Assembly (NCBI GenBank): GCA_050084515.1
Contig: CM114271.1
Location: forward strand, 28,582,001 to 28,646,000
Direction of reading: 5' to 3'
DNA length: 64,000 nucleotides
DNA from: Blasia pusilla
Taxonomy: Eukaryota
In this document: positions 2,672 through 43,967 of the stretch, one piece after another
Position numbering within the stretch: the first letter of the stretch is position 1
Layout of the letters: each line of letters opens with the position of its first letter
Notes under the pieces: model-generated
What the model saw: only the letters and a program-made list of their open reading frames with translations
Database searches by the model: none
Told to the model about the DNA's origin: nothing
Made by a program: the position numbers and the translations under genes

Positions 2672-2672
2672 T

Positions 2673-4202: not shown

Positions 4203-4321
<119 letters not shown>

Positions 4322-4459
4322 GAGACGTCGTGATGTTTGGAGATGGGGAACTTCATACACTACATGGTTATATTCATTGCAAGTTGAAGTATGGAATTCT
4401 CTTGTCAATGGCGCATCGCTGCGGTCACATTAGTCGTCGTGACTCTGATCGTAATAACC

Positions 4460-5780: not shown

Positions 5781-5789
5781 CCATCCACC

Positions 5790-6378
5790 ACATATGCTCT
5801 TCATCCTCAATACTTTCTCAACATAACCTATCACTTCTATCAATATTAAGCCATCGTCATTCCTCAATTCCTAGTCTATAAGACCCAATTCTATGTCGTG
5901 CGATAATATGATGTAAGAACGTGGAGATCCCTGCAAGTAGGTATCCTTGTTCATACTATAAAAGCATAGGATTAACATGAAGTTGATAATACCCCATTTT
6001 TATGCCCGGGCGGCTCCAAATAATGTTGAGGAATTGTTTCTGAAGATGCTCGCGGAGTGTCATTGGTTTCAGGTTCCAATCTTGTTTCGCCATATTCAAC
6101 TTTGAAGAGATAGTCACCACATCCGCAATCCACCTTATGGAATGTATGGCTCGTAAAGCTTGATGAGGGAGATGAGAAACATCAAGAGATCTCACCCTTG
6201 CGATATAAGTGATGGTCAAGTAGAAAGCTTCTTCTTCTAGAGGAAGACAACTTGTTTCCGCAAGAAGAATAGCATAAGGATTTTGGTTACACCCAATTCT
6301 TCTTGTAAAACGATCTTTTGCACCCTCTCCACGCGCTCCCAACCGGTCTTCTTACAGCTAGGGCCCCAAACTTGGGTC
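5790..6378 (-). mobile_element. 3' part of LINE ORF2, split from 15994-19520 by the Gypsy insertion
   Basis: Matches the ORF2 C-terminus of other copies (NQNPYAILLAETSCLPLE...). The sequence resumes at 15994 after a GGTC duplication. Confidence 0.9.
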
Positions 6379-6852
6379 TGTCACATCTGAGTAGCCGATA
6401 GGCCGAGATCTATCGTGGATAGGGCGTAGGAGCCAACGGACTATCTTGAGTGTAACTTTGTCCCACAGTGTCGGATGAGGTTGAGGATAGGTCCATTGTG
6501 TCAGAACGCGTCGTTTCGACGACTTTCTGTTGAGGTCTTTTACACCGGGTGACTTGTTGACCAGGTCACGCCCCTGGTAACCTGTCAGGTGCGCAGTTAC
6601 CAAGGAAGGGCTATTTTTGGGGTTTGAGCCTTTTGGCTCTTCCCAACCTATATAAGAGAGGAAGATGGCTTTCCTAAGCCATCTTTCTCATGTTGGGCCG
6701 TTGGAGCACCTCCCTTGTATGTGTGTGAGCTAGGACTAGGGTGCTAGCGTCCGGATTCCTTGATAGCACAAGGTGGACGAGGCTCGATATGCCGATGTAG
6801 ATTGAGGAGTGGAGTTTTAGGCCGGGTGTGCGTTTTGCTACTCTTTATTTTT
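6379..6852 (+). repeat. Terminal repeat A1 (promoter-bearing LTR part)
   Basis: Closely matches 15387-15855; contains TATATAAG at 6649-6656. Confidence 0.93.
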
Positions 6853-6866
6853 ACATGAGAAAGATG
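6853..6866 (+). promoter_or_regulatory. Putative self-priming primer-binding site
   Basis: ACATGAGAAAGATG is the exact reverse complement of CATCTTTCTCATGT at 6680-6693, which starts 31 nt after the start of the TATA box. There is no TGG-type tRNA PBS here. Confidence 0.75.
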
Positions 6867-8081: not shown

Positions 8082-10500
8082 GTGACACGGAGTGGAGTGA
8101 GATATCGAGGGGTTACCAGTGAGGAGCTACCTCGACATCCATCCGTGACTGGATCGTCATCATTAGACACTGGGTCTGGTGACGAGATTGCAGACAGAGA
8201 CAGTAGTACTTGGCAGGAGATGGACGACATGGGCCATCGGGGCATGCGTCGTTTCTCGGGTGCAGTGGGCACCATCCACTTAGATGATTTCATCCAGGAG
8301 TTCGACACATGGTGCGACTTCCAGGAGATACGGACCCCCACACGGTTCAACCCTTTCATGGCATGGAAGGGGTTGTTCCAACACTTGGAGGGTCCTCCGA
8401 TGGATGACTACATGGAGTTTCGATCACTATATTCAATAGAGATCGATGCCTGGAGGATGTATTGGGCTCCAAGGTATGTGTCCACTAGTGGTCGCGAGGC
8501 ATATGATGGGATTGTGAGAGGAGAGAGACCCACACCATCAGCCCGGAGACTAGATGGAGAGGAGGACAAAGTGACACAAAGCGATGTGGCGAGACCTCTC
8601 GATGGTAGAGGGCCACCAGCCAGCCCCACAAAGTGGAGTTCTTCCGACGGTTGGGGAAGAGCTACAGGCGCATGCGCACCGACATGGTGAAGAGTCTACA
8701 GGATTTTTAGCGACGATCGGGTGAGAGTCTGAGAGAGGCATTCACACGCATGAGGAGGCTGATCATTGCTACGTTTGGAGGATCGAGTGGTGTCCGGCAC
8801 CCAAAGATTGGTACTGGGTTCGGGACCGAGAACTACGGAGGAGAGTCCGAGATGCGGTCTTTGATTCACACAACGGCCCACATTGAAGGTGGTCTTTGAG
8901 TTGTCTCGAGCGTATTGAGCTCAACATAAGTGAGGAGCAGGTAGTGACCGCTGGATTTTCTCAAGAGTCGACGGGTCCACAAGCGGCGGTGACCCCACCG
9001 GTGCCATAGCGGGCACCAGTACCACGGGAGCGGGCCAGTGTGCCTAGAGAGCGGGGCGATGGTACCGTGAGCCTATGAGGCAACGACCGCATCTACATAT
9101 GTTGCCCCAGGACCGATGTGGTCTTGTTGGGCGTGTGGAGGGGCCCATAGGCGGAGAGAGCGCCACAAGCATGGGAGAGGACCACAGCGCCTCGATTGCA
9201 CAGAGCCAGGAGAGGATGGCCCCACCACACACACAGTGTGACCATTGCCCAGATATGGTCACACTAGGGATAGATGTTTTGACCTTCGCCGAGGGCCTGG
9301 GGGCGGTCGTCCTGGAGGAGGTCGGGGAGTTCTTCTGGGCGTGGTGGTAGAGGACCACCACCGGCCAGAGGAGATGGAGCAGAGCACACAGAGCCGGCGC
9401 TTCTCGCATCGATCGGTTGAGCGGAGAGGATTGCCGCCATGACGATGATGCGGCTTAGGGAAGGCACGGAGTGCGAGCAACTAGTGTGACTCAGTCTCTA
9501 CCTCTTACCACGACCCGGTGAGGATCTCTCCAATATGGGATTCATGTGTAGTGCAGCCCAGGTTGAGGCAAAATGCGATGTGGTGACTCGGGGTGTCTGC
9601 CGAGAGGCACCGAGCCATCGAGAGGTGGAGTTGAGATTGACCCACCGAGGGGACCGATGGGCGGCAGCCGGGTTCCACATTGTTCACATTGTCGAGGCAC
9701 TACACACACCATCGATGGTGCCTCGGCGACCAACGGTGCCTACGTTCAGCACCCACGTCGACGTCACGAGGAGTTGGAGTGACAACTCCTATGCCGGCTC
9801 GAGTGGAGTCAGTGTCGACTATAGTGTTGGAGGTGGCCACTAGAGTGAGCCAGACTCCGTTATTTTCCGCCATAGAGTTGGCGACGTTGGGAGTTGGACC
9901 AGCTGAGGTGTTCCGGTTGGCCGCCACGTTGTGTGAGCGTGGAGAGATGACTCCTTCTTGTTCAGAGGTAGTTGAGGAGGTGGTGGACTTGCCCTCAGAG
10001 CCGGTGCTCGGGACGTTCCCCACAGAGTCATGGCATGCGGCGGCGGGCGGTTGGTAGATATGCCACTCGACCGGCCATAGAGCGGCGATGGTGACACTGA
10101 GTAGTGATTTGGATAACCGAAGTGGAGTATTTCGCTTGGTTAGTCCGACGGGACGGTATACCACCAGCAGTAGCGTCCTACTTGATTCGGGGCGCAACCC
10201 TTGATGTTAGGGAAGCGGCGTGTTTAGCGTTAGGGTTACGGAAGGCCGACATTGAGCCTTGTCCCTTCCGATCTGAGACCTTGATTGGGGCGTATCACCC
10301 ACTCGATATATGACTCGATAGGAGATTGTTGTCGAGTCGGCCGAGCATGTGACGGATAGTGCTATGGTACGACCGCGCGATTACGACTCGGTGAGTAAAT
10401 GCGATGTGTTGGTGGGGAATGCGAGTGTTATATCCCCTAGGATTCATCCTTGACACGGGAGGAGACCGTTGCTTATCGGCCAGGATGGCGGTCGGTGACG
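8082..10500 (+). pseudogene. gag and aspartic protease region (frameshifted)
   Basis: gag-like RRFSGAVGTIHLDDFIQEFDTWCD; Zn-knuckle remnant CDHC...HT.DRCFDL at ~9235-9290; protease motif LLDSGAQ at ~10178-10200. Confidence 0.75.
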
Positions 10501-10889
10501 TTCGGATGAGTCGATTACCCGTGCGCTTTTGCGGGGCGAGATGGTCGATCACGAGGCGAGTCTGCGACCACGTTGGCGGCTTTCACGGTAGTGTTAGTTG
10601 GCCAGGAGAGTTGTTAGAGGGGAACGACATGCGGAGGATGTCCCGAAAGCGGATAGTCCCACGGAGAGACAGGCCATGGCGGGTGTCTCTTCCCATGTTA
10701 GCAATGCCTCTTCACCATTATGGGGTACAACTCGAGAGCTGAGAGGAGTGCCGCGACCTCGTGAGGCAAAGCGGCGTGGAGTCATGTTTTTATCCCAGCA
10801 GCGTGAGAGTCACGTGGCGTCGGGCTCTTGGAGTGGAGACGATGACCCCACTAGATACCACACTGTTGTGTGGCGGTGCCTGAAGGAGG

Positions 10890-11830
10890 GTGTTAGGGTG
10901 TTAGATCTCTTTGGAGGGATTAGCACCGGATTGGCCGCAGATTGCAAAGCGGGCATACGGGTGCACCAGTACCTTTATGTGGAGAGAGATGAGACTGGCG
11001 AGTATCATTACGCCACGTGGCGAGATTGGTCGAGGTATTACGAGTTGTTGTCGGTATCTGCGATGACGGGGATACAAAGATACGCTACCCGCCGACATAT
11101 CGTTGGTGGGGCGCAGGATCTCGATAGAGTTGGCACCATTCATTTGGTGATTTGGATGGCCATGTCGGGTCATTCATCGGTGGCCGAGGATTTGGATTGC
11201 GGGGGAGGTCGGGGATGTTTTGGGAGATGCTGCGAGTAGTACGACACTTGCAGCAGAGTCAGATATGTTCTATAGCGTATATTTTGGAGAACGTGCCGTT
11301 GTTGGGAGATACTCATGCACGTGTGATGACGAGTGTACATCAGGTGAGGTCCTGGTTGGGACCGGCTGTGTTGTTAGATGCAGCGAGAGTTGGGTCACGT
11401 GCCCATCGTCCATGACTATGGTGGACGAACCTGATTCCATCAGAGGTACTGAGTCGAGCCTACAATGGAGTCCGGAGAGCACCACATCTCACGGTGGATG
11501 CTATTTTGGACTCAGGGCGTCGATCTCAAGTGGTGACACGCGATGATAGACCACCATTGGCCACGGCCAATAGGGTGGGGGAGTTGAGGGCAGCCTTACC
11601 TACGTTGGTGAGCTTCCAAGCATCCCATGCCTTTCGTCAGGGAGGGCCAGGTATGATTTGGGATGAGGTGACCAGAGTATTGGAGGAGCCTACAGCGAGA
11701 TGAGAGCGTGGAGCGCCATGGGGTTCACTACCGGTACTACTGGCGGTGCCGAGGGGATGGCGAGGCATCACGGAGACAGTGTTGGGGAGGCGGCGATGGA
11801 CCTCAAGCTGTCTCTCATATGGATAGTCAC
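10890..11830 (+). pseudogene. DNMT3-like C5 cytosine DNA methyltransferase domain inside the retrotransposon pol (frameshifted)
   Basis: Motif I VLDLFGGI (10898); motif IV GWPC(Q)GHS (11154-11176, across indels); RSGMFWEMLRV; motif VI YILENVP (~11278); motif VIII AHRP*LWWTNL (11401); motif IX/X-like ERAMGF..G.T...RRQ..G.AMD (~11700-11810). Confidence 0.88.
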
Positions 11831-12229
11831 CTAGGTATGGCGAGCGAGACGGATACGAGTGTCATCCATACCGTCACGTCCCAGTTGGACCCCGCCTCTG
11901 TGGTCTATCTGAGGCATTGGTCAAGGGGCGAGACGAGGAGAGATAGGCATCCATGGACTTCTGGGACGTCGTTCGAGCGAGAGAGAGTGCGAAGGCGGCT
12001 AGAGTAGCACATGTTCATTTTGCGAATGTGGGAGCATGGTGTAGGAGGTCATAGTGGAGTGGTACATTGCTATGGAGGTGGCTAGGGTTGCTACATAGCA
12101 ACCAAAGCCGGAGGTTGCGTCCTCTCCGAGTGAGGTCAGAATGGAGACTTGGGAGCCTGTGATAGGTCTCAAGTTGATAGGAGGAGAGCGACGGCAAGTT
12201 CATAGGTTTCTGCGAGGGAATGTCACTTG

Positions 12230-15175
12230 TTTTGCCTTCAGTATGAGAGACTTGGGTTGAAGGGTCGGGATACGGATTGAGTTGGCTAGTGATACGCCAA
12301 TCTTTCGTCGACCCTACAGGTATTCTCGATATGGAGCGAGCCTTGATTGAGCAGAGTCAAGACTTGTGGAGTTATCACATGGGGAGTATGCATCCGCCAT
12401 TCATGTCATGCGGCGAAGAAGGATATGTATGGCAATTGGACGGATAGGCAGATGTGTGGAGATTATCGTTCTATCAACCGACAGACGAGGTCAGATCAGT
12501 ATGCCATGCCTACTCTTGAGGAGATCTTTGATGCGGTAGGGCATGCAAAGATCTTGAAGACGTTAGATCTCGTCTTTGGCTATCATCGGCCTTCCTATCA
12601 GTTGGAGGACAGGAGAAGACAACATTCTGGGGATAGATCGGTTCGGGAGAGATTGCTTGTATCGATGGCGGTTCTTACCATTTGGGTTGAAGAATGCGCT
12701 CGGAGTTTCGAGAGTGATGGATAGGATTCTGGGTGGCTTGGATTTTGTACGATGTTACATAGATAATATTCTTATCTTGATTCCACGGTTGAGGAGCATG
12801 AGCGACACTTGGAGGAGGTGTTTGGCGATTGCGATTACATGGACTGAAGTTACATCCGGCAAGTGCAGATTCTTTCAGAGCAGATTGAGTACTTGGGACA
12901 CACCATATACCCGAGTGGGTTAGGCGTTCAGCAGACGAAGGTAGAGGCTATTGCGCAGATTCCACGCCCTACAGATGTGAGTCGAGTCCGAACATTTCTT
13001 GGACTGGCGAACTTCTATCGACGGTATGTCTAGGGTTTTAGTGCGATCGCAAAGTCTTTGACCTTGTTGACGAGACTTGATCAGGTGTGGTTGTGGGGAG
13101 ATGATCAGGAGCGAGCATTTCAGAGCTCAGGACGAGTTGACGTCCTCACCCATTTTCTGAGAGACCGGTTAGGGGTCGCCCATTCCAGTTACATACGGAT
13201 TGGAGCATGTTGGGTCTAGGAGGAGTGCTTACTCAGAGGGATGACGAGGAGAGGGAGTTCGTTGTGGCTTACGCGAGTTGATTGAACAACATTGCAGAGG
13301 CAAAGTACAGCTCCTATGAGGGAGAGTGCTTGGCTGCAGTGTGGGCCGTGGCACATTTTAGGTGCTATTTATTCGGCAACCCTTTCACACTTATCATTGA
13401 TCATCAGCCGTTGAGATGGTTGATGGAGTCCGACAAGCTTACGGGAAAGCTTGCCAGGTGGGCTCTATTACTACAGGAGTATGAGTTTGAGGTGGTTCAT
13501 AGGCCAGGTTGGCTGAACCAGGATGCGGATGGGTTGAGTCGTAACCCATGTCCGAGTCAGAGAGACGTCACGGGAGCTCGATGGCACGGAGAGAGTGATG
13601 AGGAGATGGTGCCCGATTGGCATGCATCTGCCTATCTTTGTTGGTTGACTATGGTAGGTCAGCCACAGGTGATGACTCAGTGGTGGGGTTGGATGATGAG
13701 TCTTTGGATCCGGAGGTCAGTGAGGAGGTGACATGTGGTCGTGATATCCATGACGACGTGGAGGTTGTGGAGTTCTTGCGCACTGGCGTCATAGCGAGCA
13801 CAGTGAGTACTAGGGAGCGGGATCGGATCCTACAGAGAGCCAAGAGGTTCAGGTGGGAGGGGACTCACATTTTGCGGGTATGGGGAGATGGTAGGATACG
13901 AGTGGTACCTCATCCTTCCCAGCAAGCACGTGTAGTGCGACATGCCCATGAGGAGTTGGGACATTTCGAGTAAAGCGTTACGACTTACTCTAGGTTCGAT
14001 ATTGGTGGCGCGGCATGCATCTTTGGGTGTTGAGCGGTTGTGGCGGATGTATGGTATGTGACAGAGTGCGAGCATCCTTCAATGCTCCCACTCAGATTAC
14101 ATCCTTTGCCGATTATGGGTTTAGGTTATCGGTGGAGTTTAGACTTTTTGCGGGACCTTTGCCATTGACATGGCGTCATCATAGGTGCGTGTTGGTCATG
14201 GTGGAGCATTTCTCCAAGTGGATAGAGTTGGTGGCACTACCGGACAAAGCGGCGAGGGAACTTATGCATTTCTAGATCGTGTGCTTAGTCACTTTGGTGC
14301 ACCGGCGGAGGTGTTGAGTGACCAGGGTACCGAGTTTAGGGGAGAGTTTCAGGCCTTGTGTGATCAGGCGCTGATAGATCACCGCACCACGTCCAGGGAT
14401 CATCCTGAGGCGGATAGATTGGCGGAGAGAGTGGTACAGACGGTGAAGAGAGGATTGCGCAAGTATGGCTTGCAGCGAGGACAGTTGAGGGAGTGGGACC
14501 TACAGTTGCCATGGTTGGCTATGGGTTATCGCTTTAGTCGGCAGGCATCCTTGGCGTCATTTTCACCATACTTTTTGCTCTTTGAGAGAGAGCCAGATTT
14601 ACCTGCAGCGATTCGACGTGACATGGCGGAGGTGTTAGATCTTGATGATCCAGATGTGTGGGTGCAAGCATGTTCTCAGAGGGCAGAAGTTTTTCGTAGA
14701 GTTATGCCAATGGCCTTTGAGAACTTAGCTATTGCCCAGCATAGAGATACATTGAGGTACGCGACCATTCGTGGAGGAGGTTATCGTCTAGGGATTAGGA
14801 GGTTTCATCCTAGAGATAACGTGTATTTACAGCCGGCGGCACCCACGACGCTAGATGTCACTGCAGGGCGCACGATCCTACGTGTGCGCGAGGTATTACC
14901 GACCGGAGTCCTCATGTTGGAGGGACGAGATGGTATGGTTTGGAAGGATCATGTGCGCAATTGTGCGCCATGTCATCTTCCGAACGTAGATGGGATGGTG
15001 GATCCAAGCTTGGCGGTGGTACTGCAAGCTTGAGGTGTATGTTGTGCGGATCACGAGAGTGCGGCCACCATGTTGGTATGTGATGGTTGTTCTCGAGGGT
15101 GGCATATGTCATGTCTGACCCCCCCCTCTTGATGTGGTTCCCACGGGACGATGGATGTGTCCGAGATGTGTATAG
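12230..15175 (+). pseudogene. RT, RNase H, integrase and PHD finger of the DNMT-bearing element (frameshifted)
   Basis: RT MCGDYRSINRQT...TLDL..GY and YIDNILI; RNase H LHTDWS...YSSYEGECLAAVWAV; integrase HAHEELGHF...CMVC and SDQGTEF...AERVVQTVK; PHD C4HC3 at 15036-15175. Confidence 0.93.
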
Positions 15176-15246
15176 GGTAGTAGGTCATGTCAGAGAGATG
15201 TGATATTTTCTATCTGGAGTTAGGAGGATCCAAGCGCCTAGAAGCG

Positions 15247-15993
15247 GTTGTGTGATCTCCATGTATATGTATGAGTTTATTTTTGTACATGTGTGGATCG
15301 ACCCGTGTGTGGGGAAGATCGGTGTTATGTGGTGTAGATGTGACGAGCGATGTATGTTGTGTAGCGATATGTATGCGCACGACAGTTGTCACATCTGAGT
15401 AGCCGATAGGCCGAGATCTATCGTGGATAGGGCGAGGAGCCGGACTATCTTGAGTGTAACTTTGTCCCCAAAGGTGTCGGATGAGGTTGAGGATAGGTCC
15501 ATTGTGTCGAACGTCATTTTTACGACTTTCATGTTTAGGTCTTTACAGTAGGGTGACTTGTCGACCAGGTCACACCCCAGTAACTGTCTTGAAAGTTACC
15601 AAGGGAAGGGCTATTTTTGGGGTTTGAGCCTTTTGGCTCTTCCCAACCTATATAAGAGAGGAAGATGGCTTTCCTAAGCCATCTTTCTCATGTTGGGTCG
15701 TTGGAGCACCTCCCTTGTATGTGTGTGAGCTAGGACTAGGGTGCTAGCGTCCGGATTCCTTGATAGCACAAGGTGGACGAGGCTCGATATGCCGATGTAG
15801 ATTGAGGAGTGGAGTTTTAGGCCGGGTGTGCCGTTTTTGCTACTCTTTATTTTTTGATGTGTGATCTCCATGTATATGTATGAGTTCATTTTTGTACATG
15901 TGTGGATCGACCCGTGTGTGGGGAAGATCGGTGTTGTGTGGTGTAGATGTGACGAGCGATGTATGTTGTGTAGCGATATGTATGCGCACGACA
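15247..15993 (+). repeat. 3' terminal repeat block B1-A2-B2
   Basis: B1 (15247-15384) and B2 (15856-15993) are near-identical 138-bp copies flanking A2; the B1/A2 junction is GACA-GT-TGTC. Confidence 0.93.
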
Positions 15994-18900
15994 GGTCCCA
16001 TGTAAGACCACCGACAACACTAAGCTCCTAAATAAGAACTTTCTAAGACCTAGGATACAAGATGAGCTCTTCTATACCGATTTAAAAATGAATATATAGC
16101 TTTGTAACGAGCTTATACTCTCTTTTGCACCCAAAGTGCCCAACTATAATCATGAGATAAATCAATGCGTAGATATTTATAACTCCTCATTTTTCTAATT
16201 GTTGAAATTTTTAAAAGAAGGAGAATTTGGATCTAGTATCCATTATAATGATTTTAGACTTCACCATATTAACCTCCATCTGATTTTGGGTACAAAAACT
16301 TGCCAAAGTGTCGAGGCGTTTTTTGAAACTAATACCATCACGTGCTAGTAATATGATATAAATAAATTTTTAATAAAAAAAGTCTCCAAGCTGGACATCT
16401 TCATTGTCACATTCTTCCAACCACTTTTCGATATCATATAGGAAAACTCCAAATAGAGTAGGGGAGAGAGGGCAACATTAAGTGACTCCGATAGTACTCA
16501 AGATCTCTTGAGTTTGTGAATCTTTGATCTTGGCTTGAATGGAATGGTACAACGTGACCACGGCAACTAGAAGATATTTTGGTACTCCAATGGCTCGCAA
16601 CCTATCCCATAAGAGCTCAGGAGATAACATATTAAAAGCTTTCTTGAAATCGATGAAACTGCAAAATAAAGCTTTTCCATTGCCCTTAGATTTCTCCCAT
16701 GAAACACGTAAGGCCAAGATATGGTCGATGGTGTTGTATGTTGTGCAAAAACCAACTTGGACTCTACTCTCTTTTGAAAAGACTCCGTCCATGCACTCAA
16801 TTTTGACTCCACCAATTTCCCAAACAGCTTGGCAAAGACACTACCCGCCATGATAGAGCGATAGTTTGTCACCAAATCCTTCCTTCCTGATTTGTGAATA
16901 GGAACAATCTCTTGTAGCGACCAAGTAGAAGGAAAACCATAGATAGCAGCATCACCCAATACTTTGGTGAGGATCGGCCCAATAGAATCTCCTTCCCACT
17001 TGAGAAGTTCAACCGAATGACCATCCAAATCCTCATATATGCCATTTTCTAATTTTCTTAGTTGAGTCATCACGTATGCTTCAGAGAATAAGCCTGGTAT
17101 GCCATCACAATGGGACATAGATGTAGCATGGGGGAAGAAATACAACTTTTCAGCAAAAGATATCAAAGACTAGGGATCAAAATAGGTTTTGAAGACCGTA
17201 CTACTAACCGTCTCCAAAATGATTTGGGGTCGTTATGGAGTTCTCTTGTTCGAAATTCCTGCTTCAGCTACAAGAAATCTTGTTTCTTAGATTTCACCAA
17301 GTGTTTGTAAAGGCTCGTCATGATAAGCCGATTTTGGAGATCCAAAGATTTTCCCATTAATCATAACCTTGCTTGCTTGCATTTAGAGTCAAACCACCCA
17401 TTACAAGGCAGCCTCCTAGCACTTCTACCCCTGTGACGGGAAAAGAACTTGGATGTAGTGTTCTTGAGCAATTTGGTTGGTTGCAAACTTGTTGTGTATT
17501 GATGAGGGCTCCATACAATGTGAGTCTAGAGTTGTTGTAAATGTAGCCTGTAAAGATTTTTTTTACGAGGATCTAATCAAAACTTGGGAGAAGCTAAAAC
17601 GGATTGACATGTTGAGAGAGGAACTTTCTTCGACAATGAGAAAGTATACAAAAGAGGCTCATGATCAGATTCAGATAGAGCTTCTAAAATTTCAAACGTA
17701 GAGATATGAGAGCTATTAGTGGGTGAGGAGAGAAGATAGTCGATGAAGCTAGCACCGGTAGAGGAGAAACATGTATTGGCCTTTTGACCCTTTGGATCCC
17801 ACAGGCTTGATCTAAAGATGCTCGCGGAGTGCCATTTACCATTTATTGGAGTGAGAGTTGGGAAAATGAGAGGTTCCATTAAGAACTTTCAAATTATAAG
17901 TGGCTCCAAAAGTTAAAAAATGCTCTATCAAAGGATTTGTAGAAAGATCTGAAGAGATTCTAGACCACAAACCATCCTCTGGTTCTTCAAGAAGAGGAGA
18001 AGTCAAGGACTCACTAAAATGGGTAAATTGAGCAGTACATGTGCGAGCATTGAAATCCCCAACTAGAAAGACTTCACCTTTGCTTTGATATTTGAGAACA
18101 TCCTCAATAAGTCGATGAAATGGTTGACTCTAACTGCAAGTACACGTTGAGTAGATAAGCATGGACAATGGTCCAAAATAACAAATTGTCAAATAACAAT
18201 AAGATCCCCCTACCAAACCAAGATGTAGCCAATGATATTGGCCCCCAATGTCTTGATCTTCTAGATGTATGAGATGTAGAAATGAAGACCTTATGAAAGT
18301 AGCAATACCGCCATAACCCCTGTTTCATGTTGCCTTCTTTTGTTCCATGTTGATCCCACCAAAGTAAACCTTTGCATCTTTACAATAGTATTGCTCTCAT
18401 GTTCCCAAGTCTCCACAATATTGATGATGTCCGCCATCTTCCAAATTGGTAGAACACTCACATACTTTGTTGTTGAAAGACGGCGTATATTCCACATGAA
18501 CACTCTCAACTTCTTGGATTCCTAGGTTGATAAGTCTCTCTTTCTATTGGTAGCAATTGCTCGACCATCGTGTATAAAAGTTATAAAACTTGCTTCTTGC
18601 GCCTCTTTGACCTTTGCAAGCTCCTTTCTGCTAGTTTCAACTTGTAAAAGTGTAAGATCATGATCCAACCATACCCTCTGTCCTTTGAGAATGGCCTTGT
18701 TATCCATGGTAGTATCACATTGAGTTTGATCAAAAAACTTAACTAGAATAGCACGAGGTTGTGTTCCCTTTTTCCTCATGCGAAAAGCTTGAGCCAATTC
18801 CAGGTTGTGAACATGAAGTGTATCAATCAAGAACTTTGTGACAACACTCTTCACCTCTTCACTCTCTATTTCTGGAAATCTTGAGATTTCACATTCTTTC

Positions 18901-19520
18901 TACGTGGAAATTGGTTCTCCTTTTTTTTTTAATCTTTGGCTCTTGATAGAAAAAGATATGAGCAATCTTTGTAGCTTTAATTTGCACAATATTTCATTTT
19001 CACTTCCAAAGTTTCAACAACCTCATGCAATCTTGAACTATAGGGAGTAGTTGTTAAGGATGATGCCTTCTCTTGAACATCCACAATAGATTTGGAAAGA
19101 TCCACCATCACACTAGAACTATCTTTCAACACCTTCTTCAAAACCTCTAACATTGCCTTCAACTCTCGAATATGTGCAAGGTTCAATTGAGAAGTACGTA
19201 CCTTGAATTCTTGTCAAAGCTCTTTCAATTTATGCAAGACCACTTGTTCTAGATTCAAGATTTCCTCTTGAGTAGTCATCATGAAGTGGACTTCACTATA
19301 TCCCCGATATTACACGACCTACAATCAAATAGAGCAGAATCTCCAACACCACGCAACTTCTTCTTTATAAGTCGGTTGTGCTTGAAATTTTGAGCAATTC
19401 TGTGCCTTGTCAAATCCTAAAAGCTACAAGATCAGAATCTCCAACACCCTACAACTTCTTCTCTACAAGTCAATTATGCTTGAAAGTTTGAGCAATTTTG
19501 GATCTTGGCAACCTCCATCC
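15994..19520 (-). mobile_element. RTEX-like LINE: 5'UTR, ORF1 (~19310-18522) and ORF2 APE-RT (from ~18521), degraded
   Basis: APE motifs LRVFMWNI, NIVETW, LVGDFNA, IDYLL, SDH; RT motifs IVPIHKSG, FIDFKKAF, CPLSPTLF; many stops. Confidence 0.9.
17780..17843 (+). mobile_element. 64-bp 5'-truncated LINE 3' end with TSD
   Basis: LINE terminal motif CTTTTGACCCTTTGGATCCCACAGGCTTGATCTA plus ATTTACCATT tail; TATTGG duplicated at 17774-17779 and 17844-17849; the site is empty in the paralog near 36060. Confidence 0.8.
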
Positions 19521-19529
19521 TCCTTGACG

Positions 19530-21725
19530 GCTTATCATGACGTGCCTTTACAAACACTTGGTGAAATCCAAGAAACAAGTTTTCTTGCAGCGGAAGCAAG
19601 AGTCCTTAACAAGGGAACTCCATGACGACCCCAAATCATTCTAGAGGCGGTTAATAGTACGGTCTTCAAAACCTACTCTTGATTCAAAGTCTTTGATATC
19701 TTTTGCTGAAAAGCTCGACTTCTTTCCCCATGCTACTACATCTATGTCGCGTTGTGGAGGCATACCAGGCTTATTCTCTCAAGCAGAGGTGATGACTCAA
19801 CTACGAAGATTAGCAAATGGAAAATGTGAGGATCTAGATGGTCTTTCTATTGAACTTCTCAAGTGGGGAGAAGATTCTATCGGACCGATCCTCACCAAAG
19901 TATTGGGTGATGCTGCTATCTATGGTTTTCCTTCTACTTGATCGCTACGAGAGATTTTCCTATTCACAAATCAAGAAGGAAGGAATTTGTGACAAACTAT
20001 CGTACTATCATGGTAGATAGTATTTTTGCCAAGTTGTTTGGGAAATTGATGGAGTCAAAGTTGAGCGGATGGACAGAGTCTTTCCAAAAGAGAGCACGGG
20101 TCCAAGTTGGTTTTCGTCCAACATACAATACCATCGACCATATCTTGGTCTGACGTGTTTTATGGGAGAAATCTAAGGGCAATGGGACAGCTTAACTTTG
20201 CGATTTCATCAATTTCAAGAAAGCTTTTGATATCGTAAGCTCTTATGGGATAGGCTGCAAGCCATTGGAGTACCACCAAATCTCCTAGCAGCCGTGGCCA
20301 CATTGTACCATTCCGTTCGGGCCAAGATCAAAGCTTCACAAACTCAAGAGATCTTGAGTACTATCGGAATCATTCAAGGTTGCCCTCTCTCCCCTACTCT
20401 ATTTGGAGTTTTCATAGATGATATCGAAAAGTGGTTGGAGGAATGTGATAGTGAGGGTATCACGCTTGGGGGCTTTATCATCAAAGCTCTACTGTATGCA
20501 GATGATATCATATTACTAGCACGTGATGGCGTTAATTTACAAAAACTCCTCGACACTTTGGCAAGTTTTTGTACCCATAATCAGATGGAGGTTAATATGG
20601 AGAAGTCTAAAGTCATTATAGTGGATACTATATCCAAGTTCTCGTTCTTTTATAAAGGTCTACAATTAAAACAAGTGAAGAGTTACAAATATCTAGGCAT
20701 TGATTTCTCTCATGACTATAGTTGGACACGTTGCGTGCAAAAGAGAGTAGAAGCTGGTTACAAAGCTCTATATTCATTTTTAAATTGGTGTAGAAGAGCT
20801 CATCTTGTGTCCTTGGGTCTTAGGAAGTTCTTATTTAGGAGCTTAGTGTTGCCCGTGGTCTTATATGGGATCTGAGTTTGGGGCCCTAGTTGTAAGAAGA
20901 CAAGTAGAGAGCGCATTGAGAGGTTGCAAAAGATCATTCTACAAGAAGAATTGGGTGTAAGAAACCAAACTCCTTATGCTTTTCTTCTTGCGGAAACAAG
21001 TTGTCTTCCTCTAGAGGTTGAATTCTCTACTTGACCATCACTTATATTGCACGCGTGAGATCTCTTGATGTTTCTCGTCTCCCTCATCAAGTTTTGCGAA
21101 CCACACGTTCCATAGGGTGGATTTTGGATGTGGTAACTTGGTCTTCAAAGTGGAATGTGGCGGAATGAGATTGGGACTTGAAACCGATGGCACTTCGCGA
21201 TCATCTACAAAAGCAATTTCTCAACATTATTTGGAGCAACGTGGGCACAAAAATGGAGTATTATCAACTTCATGTTAATCCTATTGTGAACAAGGATAGC
21301 TTCTTGCGAGGATCTCCACATTCTTATGTCATATTATTGCACGACATAGAAGTGGGTCTCATAGGCAAGGAATTGAGGAACACCGATGGTTTAATATTGA
21401 TAGAAGTGAATAAATTTGTAGGTTATGTGACGGAGAAAATATCGAGGATGAAGAGCATGTGTTTGTTATATGCCCAAGATATGAAGAGATTAGACTATCT
21501 CATAAAATAGATGTGCAGAATTTCTATTCTTTACTACAACTAGTGCCTTATGATTTAGGTTGTTTTAGTAGGGATGTCATTATTCATTGCTCAAATGCTC
21601 TTGGAAATAGCTAGGAGAAGGTCTCTAGGATCTTTTTTCGGGTTAGTGAATGAATAACTTGTAATGTGTTTTTTAGCCTTTGGATCCTTTGGGTTGCACA
21701 GGCTTGATCTATTTACCATTTACCA
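19530..21725 (+). mobile_element. 5'-truncated RTEX-like LINE (RT, C-terminal Cys/His domain, 3' tail)
   Basis: QGCPLSPTLF, LLYADD and YKYLG in ORF 20294-20875; ends GGCTTGATCT-ATTTACC-ATTTACC. Confidence 0.92.
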
Positions 21726-21729: not shown

Positions 21730-22360
21730 TTTGCAAATTTCTGCTTGAGATCACCACCCCCCACAAAGATATAGCCTCCGCAATATTTTGAGCTCAAATC
21801 TACAAGACTAGAATCTTCAACACCACACAACGTCTTCTCTATGATTTGGTTGTGCTTGAGATTTTGAGAAGTTGTGTGCTTTGGAAACGTCCAACTTACC
21901 AATAAAATTTCAGCTTGAGATCAGAACCCCCCACAAAGATACAGTCTCTGCAAGATTTTGAGCTCTAATCTTCAAATCTACAAGATCAAAATTTCCAACA
22001 CCACACAACTTCTTCTCTATAAATTGGTTGCCCTTGAAATAGTGAGAAATTATGCACCTAGGAAACCTTCAACTTCCCTAAAAATTCTAGCTTGAGATCA
22101 CAATACACCACAAAGATAGAGCCTTGCAAGATTCTAAGTTCCAATCCTCAAATCTACAAGATCGGAATCTTCGACACCATACAACTTCTTCCCTATAAAT
22201 CAATTATCCTTGAAAGTTTAAGCAGTTGTGCACCTTGGAAACCTCCAATTTCCTTGCAAATTTCAGCTTGAGATCGCAACTCACTACAAAGATATAGCCT
22301 CCGCAAGATTATGAGCTCCAATCCTCAAATCTACAAGATCAGAATCTCCAACACCACCAC
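21730..22360 (-). repeat. Tandem ~175-bp monomers of the LINE 5'UTR type
   Basis: AAGATATAGCCTCCGCAAGATT...AAATCTACAAGATCAGAATCTCCAACACCAC recurs at about 21766, 21936, 22112 and 22289; the same monomer precedes ORF1 at 32700-33050. Confidence 0.85.
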
Positions 22361-22364: not shown

Positions 22365-25300
22365 AACAGGGCGTGCAGACCAACAAGTTAAAGAGTCTAC
22401 AGGATTTTCAATGAAGATCAGATGAGAGTCTAAGAGAGACGTTCATACGCATGCGGAGACTGATCATTGCAATATATGGGGTGACTAAGCTGCAGTCGGG
22501 ACCAGGAGCTATGGAGGAGAGTTTGGGATGTGATGTTGCTTCACACGCCAAAGCCCACATTAAAGATGGTCTTCGAGTTGTCAGAGCAGGTAGAGCTCAA
22601 TGTGAGTGATCGAGGAGCAGGTGATGACCACATAATTTTCATGGGATTTGACGGGTTTGCAAGTAGGAGTAGCCCCATAAGTGCTCCAGCATGCACCAGT
22701 ACAACGAGAGCGAGCCTGTGGGCCTAAAGAGTAGGGCGGGTATTGTAAGTCGCTCACACAACAGCCCGTGTCAACATATGTTACCTAGTAGGGACCAAGG
22801 TTGGCTTGTTGGACGTGTGGTGGGCCATATAGGCAGAGGAACCACCCACACCATGGTAGAGGGCCAAGGACACCTTCGATTGTTGAGGAGCCACCTCAGA
22901 TGGCCCCACCACAATTGTAGTGTGATCATTGTTTCCGATGTGGTCACACTAGGGATAGGTATTTTGATCTTCGTCGGGAGATACGTCTAGAGGCAGGCAG
23001 AGGACCTAAGGGTGAGAGAGTTGGTGGAGATTGAGTACTGGATGATCATGGTGGTAGAGTTCCATCACCAATCACAAGAGATGGAGGGAGTGCACCCGAT
23101 GCAACATTCCTTTCTCGCGTCGATTAGTTGGAGTAGAGGATTGCTACCATGATGGTCATGCAGCTAGGGACAGGCACAAAGCTGAGAGTAGCTAGTGTGG
23201 CTCCAACCCCATGTCTTACCATGATACGAGTGAGGATTCTTGTGGTATGGGATTTATGTGTAGTGCAGCTCAGGTTGAGGCTGTTGCGGAGGTCACTCGG
23301 GGTGCTGCGAGAGTAACCGCGCCATCGAGAGGTGGGATTGAGATTAACCGAGAGAAAGGGACCCATGGGCGGCAAGCCAGGGTTCCTAGTCGTTCACGTT
23401 GTTGGAGGCACTTCATATACTGTCAATTGGCGCCTCGACGACCAGTAGTACCAACGGGTGGGACAGGTATGTCGACGTTATGAGGAGTTGGAGAGACGAC
23501 TCCTATGTCAGCTTGGATGGAGCCTTTGTTGACCACATTGTTGGAGGTGGCCACTAGGATGAACCAACCTCCGTTGTTTTCTATCATAGAGTTGGCGGCA
23601 AAGGGAGTCAGACTAGCGGAGGCGTTCTGGCTGGCCACCATGTTGTGTGAGCGTGGAGAGGTGACTCCCTCTCATTCAGAGATATTTGAGGAGATGGTGG
23701 ATGTATCCTCGGATCAGGTGCTCAAGACGTCCCCCACTCAATCATGACATGTTGCGATGATAAAGTTGGTAGATATGCCAACTAGGCCAGCGATAGAGCG
23801 AGCCATGATCACAGCAAGTGTGGTATTGTTGGATAACCGAGCAAGAGTGCTTTGCTTGGTTAGTCCCATAGGTACAGTGTACCACCTACTGCGCGTACTA
23901 CTTGATTCGAGAGCGCAACTCTCGAGGTTACGGAAGGTGGTGTATTTAGCGTTGGGGTTACGGAAAGGCGACATCCAATAATGTCCCTTTCAGATATAGA
24001 CCTCTATTAGGGGCGTATCACCCACGCGGTTCATGACTCGATAGGAGTTGGTGGTTAGACTCGAGCCATAGCATGAGACAGATAGTGTGATGGTACACAC
24101 TCGGGCGATTACGACACCGACAAAGTCATATGATGTGTTGCTTGGGAGTACGGTGTTGTATTCCCTTGGTTTTATCTTGGATTTTTGGGAGGAGACAATT
24201 TCTTATCGGCCATGGTAGCAATCAGGTGATGGATGACTCGATGAGCCATCTACCGATGAAATTTGCAGGGGGTAGTGATGGTCGACCACGTGAGGATACA
24301 GTTACCACATCGGCAACATTCACAAGTGGTGTTAGTTGATCAAGAGGGTTTGAGGAGAGGAGTACACATATGGAGGACATTCCCATAGCGGATAGTCCCA
24401 CAGAGAGACATGCCAGTGTGGGTGTCTCTTCCCATGGTGCGGAGCTTCTTTATTGTTGTTAGGGATGAGCGTTGAGTTGCGTGGAGTCCAAACGAGCTCG
24501 TGAGGCAGTCGTGGAGTCATGCCTGTTTCTTGGAGCAGATAGAGTCAGGTGAAGGTCGTACTCTTGGGATGGAGACTTCATATCTTCGGGTACCATATGT
24601 GGTAGCGTTTGGAGCAGGGTAGGAGAGTGTTAGATCTCTTACGAGGGATCAACACGACAGGTACTTGCAGTGTTGCAATGTTGGAGGGACAACAACACCG
24701 ATGGTGCTAGATGTGTATAGGATAGTAGATCATGTAGGGCATATATGCGTGTGTTGTCTGGAGTTAGGGGCACCCAAATGCCAGCTAGGGGGGCGGTTGT
24801 GGGATCTTGATGTATATGAGTGAGTTAGTTTGGTTTATGGATAGATCGACCCTTGTGTTGGGAAGATTGGTATTGTGTGGTGTGTAGATGTGGGTTGTGT
24901 AGCGATGTGTTTGGGCACGACAATTGTCACATCTTAGTAGGTGATAGGTAGAGATCTATCGCAGTGACGACATAGAGAGCTGGCGGACTGTCTTGAGTGT
25001 AACTTCGTTCCGAGGTGTTGGATGAGGTTGAGGATAGGTCCATTGTGTTAGGAACGTTGTTTCTGAGAACTTTTTTATTTTGGTCGTTGTCAACCGGATG
25101 ACTTGTTGAGCAGGTCATCCACCCCCTAGTAACCTGTGCACATAGGTTACCACGAGGATTGTTAGTTTTAGGGAAAGAGCCTTTTGGTTCTTCCTACATC
25201 TATATAAGGGAGAGAGATGGCTTTCCCAAACCATCTTTCTTATGTTGGGCCGTTGGAGCACCTCTCTTGCTCGTGTGTGAGATAGGACCAAGGTGCTAGC

Positions 25301-25541
25301 GTCCAGACTCCCTCATCGCGGAGGGTGGATGAGGCTCGATATGTCGATGTCGATTGAACAGTGGAGTTTTAGGTCGGGTGTGCCATTTTCACTCTTATTT
25401 TTGTTGTGGGATCTCGATGTATATGTGTGAGTTTGTTTGGTTTATGGATGGATCAACCAGTGTGATGGGAAGATCGGTGTTGTGTGGTGTGTAGATGTGA
25501 CCAACGATGTGGGTTGTGTAGCAATGTATATGCGCAAGACA
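22365..25541 (+). mobile_element. Second, diverged, 5'-truncated and internally deleted copy of the DNMT-Gypsy family
   Basis: Colinear with 8665-10930 (gag, protease VLLDSRAQ, MTase motif I start RVLDL at ~24625). It then jumps to a PPT-like AGGGGGGCG and B1 24796-24922, A2 24925-25402, B2 25403-25541. Confidence 0.9.
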
Positions 25542-25858
25542 AAGTAGAAAAAAAGAGCACGAGAACGAAGGAGGAACCTCTTGCGTCTACCATAGAAAAG
25601 AAGACGACAAGAGAAAGAATTTAAATTATAAACAATTTTTTAAAAAATTAGCAAGAATATAATTATAACATTTGAATTGTCCCTTAAAATCTAAAACATA
25701 TATGATGGATTGAAAAAACTAGAGGAGAATGATGGAAAAAAAGTCCAATGAAAATAAGGAAATTTAAAATATCTATTATAGTAAAAATGAAAAATACTTA
25801 AGAAAGAGAAAAAAAAGATATAAAGAAGGTTGACGGAGAGGGAGACTCATGAGGGAAA

Positions 25859-34110: not shown

Positions 34111-34119
34111 AAAAAGCTA

Positions 34120-40186: not shown

Positions 40187-42365
40187 TGCCACGTTATAGA
40201 GGCATACCAGGCTTATTCTTTGAAGAAGAGGTGATGACTCAACTAAGAAGATTAGCAAATGACAAATACAAGGATTTGGATGGTCTTTCTGTTAAACTTC
40301 TCAAGTGGGAAGGAGATTCTATTGCACCGATCCTCACCAAAGTATTAGGTGATGCTGTTGTCTATGGGTTTTCTTCTACTTGGTTGCTACGGGAGATTGT
40401 TCCTATTCACAAATCAAGAAGGAAGGATTTGGTGACAAACTATCGCACTATCATGGTAGGTAGTGTCTTTGCCAAGCTGTTTGGGAAATTGGTGGAGTCA
40501 AAGTTGAGCGCATGGACAGAGTCTTTCCAAAAGAAAGCACGGGTCCAAGCTGGTTTTTGCCCAACATACAACACCATTAACCATATCTTGGTCTTACGTG
40601 TTTTATGGGAGAAATCTAAGGGCAATGGAAAAGCTTTGTTTTGCGGTTTTATCGATTTCAAGAAAGCTTTGGATACCGTACCTCGTAAGCTCTTATGTGA
40701 TAGGCTGCAAGCCATTGGGATACCATCAAATCTCCTCGTTGTCGTGGCCATGTTGTGCCATTTTTTTTGGGCCAACATCCAAGATTCACAAACTCAAGAG
40801 ATCTTGAGTACTATCGGAGTCATTCAAGGTTGCCCTCTCTCCCCTACACTTTTTGGAGTTTTCATAGATGATAATGAAAAGCGGTTGGAGGAATGTGATA
40901 GTAAAGGTCTCAAGCTTGGAGACTTTGTCATCAAAGCTCTATTGTATGCCGATGATATCATATTACTAGCATATGATGGCATTAGTTTACAAAAATACCT
41001 CGACACTTTGGCAAGTTTTTGTACCCTGAATCAGATGGAGGTCAATATGGAGAAGTCTAAAGTCATTATAGTGGGTACTAGATCCAAGTTCTCGTTCTTT
41101 TACAAAGGTCTACAATTAAAACAAGTGAAGAGTTACAAATATCTAGGCATTGATTTCTCTCATGACTATAGTTGGGCACTTTGCGTGCAAAAAAGAGTAG
41201 AAGTTGGTTACAAAGCTCTATATTCATTTCAAGATTGGTGAAGAATAACTCATCTTGTATCGTGGGGTCTTCAAAAGTTCTTGTTTAGGAGTTTAGTGTT
41301 GCTTGTGGTCTTATATGGGACCCAAGTTTGGGACCCTAATTGTAAGAAGATAGATTTGGAGCGCGTAGAGAGGGTGCAAAAGATCTTTCTACAAGAAGAA
41401 TTGGATGTAAGAAACCAAACTCCTTATGCTAGAGGCTAAAGCTCTCTACTTGACCATCACTTATATCGAAAGGGTGAGATTTCTTGATGTTTCTCGTCTC
41501 CCTCATCAAGCTTTTCGAGCCACATGTTCCATAGGGTGGATTTCAGATGTGGTGACTTGATCGCCACATTTGCAAATCGGCAAACAGGTTTGGAAAGATC
41601 CAGCATCACACTAGAGTTATCTTTCAACCCCTTCTTCAAAACCTCCTACGTTGCCTTCAACTCTCGCATAGGTTCAATTGAGAAGTTTGTACCTTGAATT
41701 TTTGTGGATGCTCTTTCAATTCATGCAAGCACACGTTTCATGGGGTGGATTGCGGATGTGGTGACTTGGTCTTCAAAGTGGAATGTGGTGGAACGAGATT
41801 GGGACTTAAAACTTATGGCACTCCGCGAACATCTACAGAAGTAATTTCTCAATATCATTTGGAGCAGTGCGGGCACAAAAATGGAGTATTATCAGCTTCA
41901 TATTAATCCTATGCTTGTATATTATGAACAAGGATGCCTACTTGCGGAGATCTCCACGTTCTTATCTCATATTATCACACGACATAGAAGTGGGTCTCAT
42001 AGGCTAGAAAATGAGGAAGGACGATGGCTTAGTATTGATAGAAGTGAACGAATCTGTAAGTTATGTGACGGAGAGAGTATTGAGGATGAAGAGCATGTGT
42101 TTGTTACATGTCCAAGGTATGAAGAGATTTGACTAGCTCATAAAATAAATTTGGAGAATTTCTATTCTTTACTACAGCTAGTGCCTTATGATTTAGGTTA
42201 TTAGATGAGGGATATCATTATTCATCGCTCAAGTGCTCTAGGAAATAGCTAAGAGAAGGTCTTTAGGATCTTTTTTCGGGTGAGTGAATGAATGATTTGT
42301 GATGTGTTTTTAAGCCTTTTGACCCTTTGGGTCCCACGGGCTTGATATATTGACGATTTATCATT
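40186..42365 (+). mobile_element. 5'-truncated LINE, RT (40186-41241) to 3' end, with an inverted ORF1 fragment at ~41575-41730
   Basis: 351-aa RT ORF; C-terminal RICKLC...EDEEH...CPRY; family terminus at ~42315-42365. Confidence 0.92.
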
Positions 42366-42367
42366 AT

Positions 42368-43967
42368 TGCGAGTTTGGGAGAATAGTAGAATACACGTAA
42401 TGCCTCATCCTTTTGAGAGAGCATGTTTGGTGCAACATGCCCATGAGAAGTTGAGTCACTTATGAGTGAGGCAGACCTACAACTTGCTACAGATATAGTA
42501 TTCGTGGTGAGACATGCTGATTAATGTTCAACAGTTTATCCCCAAATGCATTGTGTGTGACCAAGTTTGGGCATCGTTCAATGCTCTTTGACTCTACACT
42601 TGAAGCCATTTCCAATCATAGGTTTAGATTATAGATAGAGTTTGGATTTTGCAAGATCTCTACCTTTGACGTGTTGCCATAATTGTTATGTGGTGGTGAT
42701 GATCGAACACTTCTCGAATTGGCAGTGTTGACAAATCAGGGTAGGGAGTTTTTTCGGGAGTTTCAAACCTTGTGTGATCAGGCATTGATTGACCATTATA
42801 CTCCTTCGCAAGATCACCTTGAGACAGATGGATTAGCGGAGAGAGTTGTGGATACAGTGAAGAGAGTTTTACGCAAGTATAGCTTGTAGAGAGGTCACTT
42901 AGGAGATTAGGACCACAATTAATCAAAAAAATGCAACCATGGTTGAATTGCCAACCATATTGGTTGACGATTGGATATGGATTTAGCAAGAAAGTATCCT
43001 TAGCATCTTTCTCACCATAGTTTTTGCATTATGGACGAGAGCCTGATTTTCCTGCGGTCATTTTTTGCGATGTTGGTGAGGTGTTGAACCTCGATGACCC
43101 TGATATATGGATGCAAGCATATTCTTAGAAGGCTGAGTTTTTTCGGAGAGTTATGCCCATGACATTTGAGAACTTGGAGATTAGGCAACATCGTGATACT
43201 TTGAGGTATGCAACTATTCGGGGAGGTGGTTATCGACCAACGATCCAGAGGTTTCATCAATAGACGATACCTACGACGTTATATGTGACTGCAAGGCACA
43301 CCATCTTGAAAGTGTGTGATGTCTTGACATCTGATGTTCCGTTCATTACTGTATCCTCGCCCGAGTACACCCGGAATTGTGGGCCTGGTGTGGAGAGACG
43401 CAAAGGTATGATTTGGAAGGATCATGTGCGTAATTGTGTGTTATTTCACCTTCCTAACATTGAAGATACAATTGATCCGAGCTTAGCAGTAGTTCTTGCA
43501 AGCTTTCATTGTATGTTGTATGGTCTTTCCCTAGTGCAGCCAAGATGCTAGTCTATGATGGGTGTTCAAGAGGATAGCACATGGCACATCTGACGCGAGC
43601 CCTCACTAGGCTTCTTCGTGGATGATGGATGTATCCCAGATGTACATAAGGTAGATACTAAGTAGTTTTAGATCCATATTTTTGTGTGTTACGTAGATGA
43701 CAAGAAGGCGAAAACAATGGGGTCATATGAGCATCCGCCATTTTTACTCTTAGCATCTTAGAGATGTACGGCATGGTAGGTAGGGATAGATAGCTATTTA
43801 GAGTTAGAGGGACCTAACTACCAGCTAGGGAGGCGATTGGATATATTTTGGTACTCGATTTTCTTGATGTTTTGATGTCATTAATTAGCATGGTATCTTG
43901 TGTGTTTGTATGTGTATTTGGTGACAAACATGTATATTATATAGCGATGGGTATGCCCATGACAATT
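42368..43967 (+). mobile_element. Third, older fragment of the PHD-integrase Gypsy family (integrase, degenerate PHD, PPT, B repeat)
   Basis: Colinear with 13870-15390 (HAHEKLSH, DGLAERVVDTVKR, WKDHVRNC); PHD remnant ~43510-43650; CTAGGGAGGCG; ends GACAATT at 43961-43967. Confidence 0.82.

Follow-up and report, generated by a model that had tools for sequence, protein, structure and literature searches.

Among retroelements, split direct repeats are taken to mark those that carry a tyrosine recombinase, and equal long terminal repeats (LTRs) to mark those that carry an integrase (IN). The closest described exception is KnitGypsy-Dnmt3 of Klebsormidium nitens, for which the legend of one figure gives a Gypsy-type pol, an inserted C5 cytosine DNA methyltransferase (Dnmt) and a DIRS-like repeat layout (de Mendoza, 2018; PMC5890265, Fig. 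4c). We analyzed a stretch of 64,000 nucleotides from Blasia pusilla (GCA_050084515.1, contig CM114271.1, positions 28,582,001 to 28,646,000 of the forward strand; hereafter the window) and found in it a 9.6-kb degenerate Ty3/gypsy element (6379-15993) of the order A1-internal-B1-GT-A2-B2, whose family breaks both rules. On balance it is probable that this lineage, of the KnitGypsy-Dnmt3 kind and encoding gag-protease (PR)-Dnmt and reverse transcriptase (RT)-RNaseH-IN-PHD, has as its normal integrated form A-primer-binding site (PBS)-internal-polypurine tract (PPT)-B-A-B, obtained through the use of an internal attachment (att) site.

The kind of layout is already in print, in a single figure-legend sentence, and the window element is a further member. 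KnitGypsy-Dnmt3 shares with the window family the order A-coding-B-A-B, the Gypsy domains and a C5 Dnmt within the polyprotein, and Dnmt-RT-rve proteins of K. nitens are 54-56% identical to the integrase part of the window element (by hit list). Its host differs, the nearest named integrase relatives of the window element being from liverworts (Marchantia polymorpha and Calypogeia fissa), with K. nitens and volvocine algae farther away. The main text of PMC5890265, supplements aside, gives no target-site duplication (TSD), ends, PBS, PPT or mechanism, and the word “circular” is absent from it; this paper was the sole precedent found for split repeats in an integrase element, which the consulted parts of PMC8557442, PMC8969392 and PMC4157794 do not describe. 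As far as the literature was searched, the TSD, the TG/CA ends at the boundary between B and A, the self-priming PBS, the purine-pyrimidine (RY) spacer, the missing reciprocal form and the extension to genomes of bryophyte type are undescribed.

Elements of the PAT, Ngaro and TOC1 type (DIRS order) share with the window element the A1-internal-B1-A2-B2 layout and an internal copy of the joined ends, and some DIRS elements carry a methyltransferase-like domain (PMC4157794, PMC5890265). They encode a tyrosine recombinase and are described as making no TSD (PMC8969392), whereas the window element combines a DDE integrase with TG…CA ends and a TSD of 4 bp; of the traits of that order it shows the split direct repeats, but it carries a TSD, and no tyrosine recombinase gene was found in the frames scanned. 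Elements of the Tf1/sushi and plant Tcn1 clades are described as self-priming, their PBS pairing with the start of their own transcript (PMC6317226), and sequence predicts the same for the window family, whose RT, RNase H and IN are likewise of Ty3 type (a likeness by features). Tf1/sushi and Tcn1 elements have two equal LTRs and a chromodomain, whereas the window family has permuted repeats, a Dnmt and, at the C-terminus of the integrase, a PHD finger instead of the chromodomain.

Integrases of prototype foamy virus (PFV) and human immunodeficiency virus 1 (HIV-1) cleave the palindromic LTR-LTR junctions of 2-LTR circles (PMC1180852, PMC1905944, PMC4372172): the two strands of the abutted ends are each cut at CA, a reaction that would restore ends fit for integration, and we propose likewise for the window family. 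The retroviral junction is made by the cDNA ends, has a 4-bp spacer and belongs to a side path, whereas that of the window family is built into U3, has a 2-bp spacer and would belong to the main path. In IS3/IS911-type copy-out-paste-in transposons, too, an integrase-related DDE enzyme acts on abutted ends a few bp apart, with a circular intermediate; these are bacterial DNA elements without reverse transcription, and the analogy is functional only.

The boundaries of the window element were taken from repeat finding (5000-20000) and direct reading (Table 1), which agreed with a preliminary description of this DNA in placing A alone at the 5' end and B-A-B, with the 138-bp B twice, at the 3' end. 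The element begins with TGTCAC and finishes with ACGACA (TGTC…GACA). Its joined flanks align across the insertion point to five uninterrupted copies of a host repeat in the window (…CCCAAACTTGGGTCCCATATAAGACC…), and because these five paralogs are contiguous at CTTGGGTCCCAT, the insertion comprises exactly 6379-15993 with the 4-bp TSD GGTC. B1 and B2 are alike at 135 of 138 positions; A1 and A2 are alike at 48/48 positions over the 5' part, at 98.4% over the last 250 bp and at 85% in a middle patch (6427-6603 versus 15435-15603). Within this patch A1 in places sides with a second copy of the element in the window (copy 2) against A2, which suggests a gene conversion or recombination patch after insertion.

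A PBS directly follows A1 and a PPT directly precedes B1, as in Ty3/gypsy elements, so the replicative LTR is B+A, as the preliminary description held, and the cDNA would be BA-internal-BA. Since both a TATA box and the predicted 5' end of the transcript lie inside A1, A1 comprises distal U3, R and U5. The claim that A ends at the priming site was exact as to position, the primer being not of tRNA type but a predicted self-primer, of which the 14-nt PBS is the exact complement; a 14-nt complement was reached in 1 of 20,000 shuffles of A, and 6680-6693 pairs with the PBS in the minimum free energy fold. As a whole, R-U5-PBS has an unremarkable fold energy (z -0.94), and only the specific pairing is informative. 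Among related loci (identified below by L numbers), the complement is found with differing sequences (17 nt in L009, 16 in L076, 15 in L069, 13 in L060, 12 in L036 and L005) and in 9 of the 11 elements with a 5' end a TATA-like box precedes it by about 30 nt; the exceptions to the pairing are L062, with a shifted 10-mer only, and L066, with none. That the pairing is kept while its sequence changes points to Tf1-like self-priming rather than tRNA priming.

The PPT is degenerate in the window element; a G-run PPT, CTAGGGGGGCG(A), stands before B1 in copy 2 and before all 21 B1 listed for the closer family, and GGGGGGGGATACA precedes all 22 B1 listed for another family. At the A2/B2 boundary of the window element, the base that immediately precedes the PBS abuts the bases that immediately follow the PPT, and in relatives the joint falls within a few nucleotides of this point; it is a U5/U3 end-to-end joint. 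Taken with the layout and the ends, the places of PBS and PPT make the integrated copy a rotated version of the expected cDNA, which supports the idea that A-internal-B-A-B is a circular permutation of BA-internal-BA. On the same grounds, a transcript that ends in A2 does not template the A2/B2 joint.

The ends of B+A lack TG and CA, and the TGTC/GACA ends sit instead at the B/A boundary, both as previously noted. The B1/A2 boundary reads …ACGACA-NN-TGTCA… in every copy, with a spacer that is always a purine followed by a pyrimidine (among 22 locus rows GC 10, AC 7, GT 4 and AT 1; the two window copies have GT and AT). Whole-genome shotgun (WGS) reads of the same species label carry the spacers GC (93 reads), AC (54) and GT (11) at this boundary. 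The last ~39 bp of B are 85-90% conserved among elements whose integrases differ by 25-30%. We infer that ACA-RY-TGT is an internal att site used by the integrase: cuts after CA on both of its strands would leave recessed CA-3'OH ends with 2-nt 5' overhangs, a normal strand-transfer substrate.

The layout recurs in other copies. Copy 2 has the same B-A-B register as the window element, and a third copy is an integrase-PHD fragment (Table 1). We sampled 80 related loci from metagenome contigs and sorted their 3' ends by an automatic rule, resulting in 16/80 with B-A-B, 3/80 with B/A followed by the contig end, 2/80 with B/A and a second B left unrecognised, 29/80 with a single B followed by other sequence, 25/80 with the contig end before B and 5/80 unrecognised. 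By eye, two B copies are also present in L064, L073 and L041, whereas L074 is a B/A cut after 62 bp and L076 a single B. Several insertions had been assembled more than once (L031/32, L048/49, L058/70, L067/69/72, L002/11 and L066/71), and merging them left about 14 independent B-A-B ends from two to three families. Because copy 2 and these loci share it, B-A-B is a family trait and not a one-off. The complete A1…B1-A2-B2 is present in L069; in L051 the contig stops after A1…B1-A2. None of the 80 loci showed two equal LTRs (BA…BA or AB…AB), so that the integrated form A…B-A-B departs from the Ty3/gypsy rule of equal LTRs around an internal region; the cDNA of the family would have equal B+A LTRs.

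A readable 5' end was available for 11 independent elements (window, L002=L003, L005, L009, L036, L051, L060, L062, L066, L069 and L076), and all 11 read flank/A and then PBS; the reciprocal form A-B-A…B occurred at 0/11. Single-B copies (A-internal-B) are frequent and carry 4-bp TSDs (ACTA in L002, ATGC in L036, CCAA in L060, TCAT in L062 and TGCA in L076). The TSD is a perfect 4 bp in 6 of the 9 elements with both ends, and matches at 3/4 positions in L005 and L069; TG…CA ends with a short TSD are as in other Ty3/gypsy elements. Each of the two forms found takes its A-start from the 5' LTR; they differ in whether the B-end comes from the 5' LTR (A-internal-B-A-B) or from the 3' LTR (A-internal-B).

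We mapped about 1% of one WGS run of the same species label at 90% likeness, plus two RNA runs. WGS depth is 400-1100 over the element and ~100 on the flanks, so the family is abundant in the sampled species. Depth is 734 at 15850, five bases from the A2/B2 joint; because raw reads cover the joint and copy 2 shares B-A-B, the layout is not an assembly artefact. The 1817 loose ends from B into flank and the 158 joints from B to A, to which an uncounted set of contiguous reads would be added, give no ratio of the two forms, as the conserved end of B recruits reads from diverged subfamilies. RNA reads cover the element, with a depth of up to 27 in the RT-IN part, and most first mates lie on the − strand, usually meaning + sense RNA. 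They also cross B/A (11 joints, and 71 reads from TGTCAC into A of another subfamily), so B1-A2 is transcribed, as the model below needs. Places where RNA begins or ends were represented by 5-7 molecules, too few for mapping a transcript start or poly(A) site. One segment of the 5' internal region (7041-7387, 67% G+C) has a WGS depth of ~22 versus 400-1100 elsewhere, and seems to belong to this copy, or to a small subfamily, alone.

Coding content was identified with Pfam on whole + strand frames with X at stops, single open reading frame (ORF) pieces having given almost nothing, and window parts were placed by tblastn with the proteins of an intact relative, the metagenome contig L019. Mapped in this way, gag-like, PR, Dnmt, RT, RNase H, IN and PHD parts follow in this order across 8208-15193, and the pol order PR-RT-RNaseH-IN with Ty3-type RT and RNase H is that of Ty3/gypsy elements in both the window and L019. 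The rve integrase of the window is degenerate (PF00665, 26 bits in the longest ORF, plus PF17921, Integrase_H2C2); this 282-aa ORF has hundreds of relatives, the best of them, among intact relatives, 85% identical, and many relatives combine RT, RNase H, rve and PHD with a C5 DNA methylase. In L019, ORF1 comprises an aspartic protease and DNA_methylase, and ORF2 comprises RVT_1, RT_RNaseH, H2C2, rve and PHD; the closest solved structure is Ty3 Gag-Pol (7q5b, E 4e-98). No tyrosine recombinase (PF00589) was found in the + strand frames of the window (its minus frames were unscanned) or in ORF1, ORF2 and the three minus-strand frames of L019, the latter giving no Pfam family, and it is absent from the 120 homologs listed. 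The earlier claim of an rve integrase with a 4-bp TSD in spite of split repeats is borne out by these scans and by the empty paralogs.

We propose the following cycle. Transcription would start ~30 nt after the TATA box in A1 and run through B1 into A2. The minus strand would be self-primed, the 5' end of the RNA folding back onto the PBS just after A1 as in Tf1, and the plus strand would start from the G-run PPT just before B1, yielding BA-internal-BA. The integrase would then ignore the cDNA ends, which have no TG/CA, and use the att site in U3, …ACGACA-RY-TGTCA… at B/A. With both att halves of the 5' LTR as reactive ends the insertion would be rotated, the outer cDNA ends (end of U5, start of U3) being joined as A2/B2 either before integration, in a joint of the 2-LTR-circle type, or after it, by host end-joining. 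The A-start of the 5' LTR together with the B-end of the 3' LTR would give A-internal-B, and a 4-bp staggered cut of the target would give the TSD. The two further forms, which would need the A-start of the 3' LTR, were not seen. We speculate that the att of the 5' LTR is preferred because plus-strand synthesis makes the 5' LTR double-stranded well ahead of the 3' LTR. The self-primer of Tf1 is said to stay in place, so that its integrase must trim longer tails, and trimming of this kind would be a plausible first step towards shifting att inward.

Several observations weigh against this reading. We infer the mechanism from integrated copies only. A transcript 3' end inside A2 is an assumption of the model, and transcripts running into B2 would open other schemes. 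The window copy is itself broken by many frameshifts and has a degenerate PPT. In one family (F53) the A2/B2 joint is nearly alike in 6 copies, which also fits a templated joint. A single-B insertion (L066 ~11205, L071 ~3600) keeps an AC spacer after ACGACA and has a 6-bp duplication, TCTAGC, and may represent an unprocessed end or an aberrant integration. Single-B copies in general may be direct products, B1×B2 deletions or collapses of short-read assembly; their integrases have a mean of 4.7 stops versus 2.9 for B-A-B copies, a weak hint of greater age.

The nearest alternative is that of the preliminary description taken strictly, in which the cDNA is ligated into a 2-LTR circle that is opened at random at either of its identical B/A sites. 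A2/B2 is indeed the U5/U3 joint expected of such a circle, A-internal-B copies would follow from 1-LTR circles, and cleavage of LTR-LTR junctions is documented for PFV and HIV-1 integrases (PMC1180852, PMC1905944). Random opening predicts A-B-A-internal-B as often as A-internal-B-A-B, however, and its complete absence at the 5' ends would by simple arithmetic have a chance of ~0.01 if a third of copies were reciprocal and 0.0005 if half were. This count is not final, since A×A deletion could remove reciprocal copies more quickly than others; we regard random opening as unlikely. The permutation logic behind it survives, while the circle itself was not observed and end joining after integration fits equally well. 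Integration of one circle as a single event disagrees with a layout that is standard in copy 2 and ~14 independent loci, the reciprocal form it predicted did not appear, and its set of forms was incomplete, the common A-internal-B copies with 4-bp TSDs being unpredicted.

A cycle like that of DIRS, PAT and Ngaro, in which the split repeats rebuild a circular cDNA by templated bridging and site-specific recombination inserts it, the integrase being incidental or used differently, would account for a repeat layout that is the same as in tyrosine-recombinase elements (PMC8969392, PMC4157794) and was noted as such for KnitGypsy-Dnmt3 (PMC5890265), and also for an A2/B2 joint that is reproducible within one family. 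We consider it improbable: the Pfam scans described above contain no tyrosine recombinase, 4-bp TSDs and TG…CA ends typify a DDE integrase where DIRS elements are described without TSDs (PMC8969392), and the PBS and PPT are placed as an ordinary LTR cycle requires. That a canonical equal-LTR element (AB or BA) afterwards underwent rearrangement or nesting, or was assembled wrongly, is very improbable. The age of the window copy, with its many frameshifts, and the patch in which its A1 and A2 differ would suit such an origin, yet the same layout and junctions occur in copy 2, which is 70-77% identical, and in the independent loci of two to three families, the layout is in print for Klebsormidium (PMC5890265), no locus among the 80 relatives showed equal LTRs, and raw reads cover the joints. 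Insertion through the internal att site is the reading that we prefer over these.

More broadly, it is plausible, if still tentative, that a green-plant Ty3/gypsy lineage has turned its DDE integrase to an internal, junction-type att site (ACA-RY-TGT in U3), its cDNA always being inserted rotated, in a circle-equivalent manner. If true, retroelements would have a third mode of integration, intermediate between those of LTR and tyrosine-recombinase elements, and the split-direct-repeat layout would have arisen by convergence, independently of the recombinase. To our knowledge, retroviral integrases cleave abutted ends only in a side reaction, described for HIV-1 and PFV; use of an att inside U3 would be a natural case of a retroviral-type integrase acting on such ends. 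It would also provide a concrete system for the coupling of cDNA ends, circles and integration, and for the evolution of the DIRS-type layout. LTR finders would mis-annotate or miss the family, despite its abundance in the sampled species. Given the Dnmt and PHD finger of the family and the RNA reads that cover it in the same species, bench tests are feasible in a bryophyte.

Table 1. Features of the window element, its other copies and the host repeat (positions in the window).
Feature	Position	Strand	Evidence or remark
Left TSD copy, GGTC	6375..6378		Uninterrupted paralogs read CTTGGGTCCCAT
A1, 474 bp, begins TGTCAC	6379..6852	+	Repeat finding, direct reading
TATA box in A1, TATATAAG	6649-6656	+	Sequence reading
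Predicted self-primer / transcript 5' end, CATCTTTCTCATGT	6680..6693	+	31 nt downstream of TATA box; complementary to PBS
Predicted self-priming PBS, ACATGAGAAAGATG	6853..6866	+	Directly after A1; exact complement of 6680-6693
gag-like remnant	8208..8594	+	tblastn with L019 ORF1
Aspartic protease remnant	10189..10553	+	L019 mapping; Pfam on L019 ORF1
Dnmt remnant, frameshifted	10859..11697	+	E 1e-44 versus L019; PF00145 in L019 ORF1 and many homologs
RT remnant (RVT_1)	12135..13180	+	Pfam, L019 mapping
Ty3/gypsy-type RNase H	13162..13650	+	PF17917, 108 bits; L019 mapping
Integrase	13743..15033	+	H2C2 zinc finger ~13976-14074, rve core ~14245-14406, C-terminal part
PHD finger at integrase C-terminus	15040..15129	+	PF00628, E 0.0034; clear in relatives
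Degenerate PPT, CTAGAAGCG	15238..15246	+	Directly before B1; copy 2 and relatives have CTAGGGGGGCG
B1, 138 bp, start of U3, ends ACGACA	15247..15384	+	Repeat finding, direct reading
2-bp spacer GT in candidate internal att site ACA-RY-TGT	15385..15386		Direct reading
A2, 469 bp	15387..15855	+	Repeat finding, direct reading
B2, 138 bp, ends ACGACA	15856..15993	+	A2/B2 boundary joins U5 end to U3 start
Right TSD copy, GGTC	15994..15997		Direct reading, paralog comparison
Copy 2, diverged, 5'-truncated, internally deleted	22366..25541	+	70-77% identical over aligned stretches
Copy 2, 3' end	B1 24796-24922, AT spacer, A 24925-25402, B2 25403-25541	+	Same B-A-B register as window element
Copy 3, integrase-PHD fragment only, no terminal repeats	42352..43654	+	L019 mapping
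Host-repeat paralogs	20256-21452 (-), 37060-37827, 38970-39735, 40706-42090 (-), 45387-46274		Used as empty-site controls

Three further ideas about the repeats were dropped. Microheterogeneity of A2/B2 as proof of end-joining was given up, as the joint varies in one family but not in the other; an LTR of A+B with a truncated 5' LTR is disfavoured by where PBS and PPT lie; and tandem elements sharing an LTR would require a second internal region, of which there is none. One contig variant from the reads joins the end of A plus ~15 nt of PBS-like sequence to the start of B (6861 to 15247, with TAAAGA between), and would be a joint of the U5-PBS-U3 type in another copy.

L019 encodes gag-PR-Dnmt (1369 aa) and, after a single stop and in the same frame, RT-RNaseH-IN-PHD (1047 aa; together 976-8226), which suggests stop-codon read-through; the contig begins and finishes inside A, within G+C-rich palindromic repeats. 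The window element is nested in another dispersed host repeat (5800-6378 and 15994-16600), of which at least five more copies, 79-88% identical, are present in the window. The coding strand of the element has a G+C content of 50-57% and a strong positive GC skew (+0.18 to +0.28), versus a host background of ~40% G+C. Arrays of a ~177-bp satellite-like tandem repeat were found at 5179-5725, 19312-19526, 21735-22357, 32730-33053 and 34116-34792. Copy 2 is truncated directly against one such array, and a ~211-bp tandem repeat (25858-26415) lies a short way 3' of this copy.

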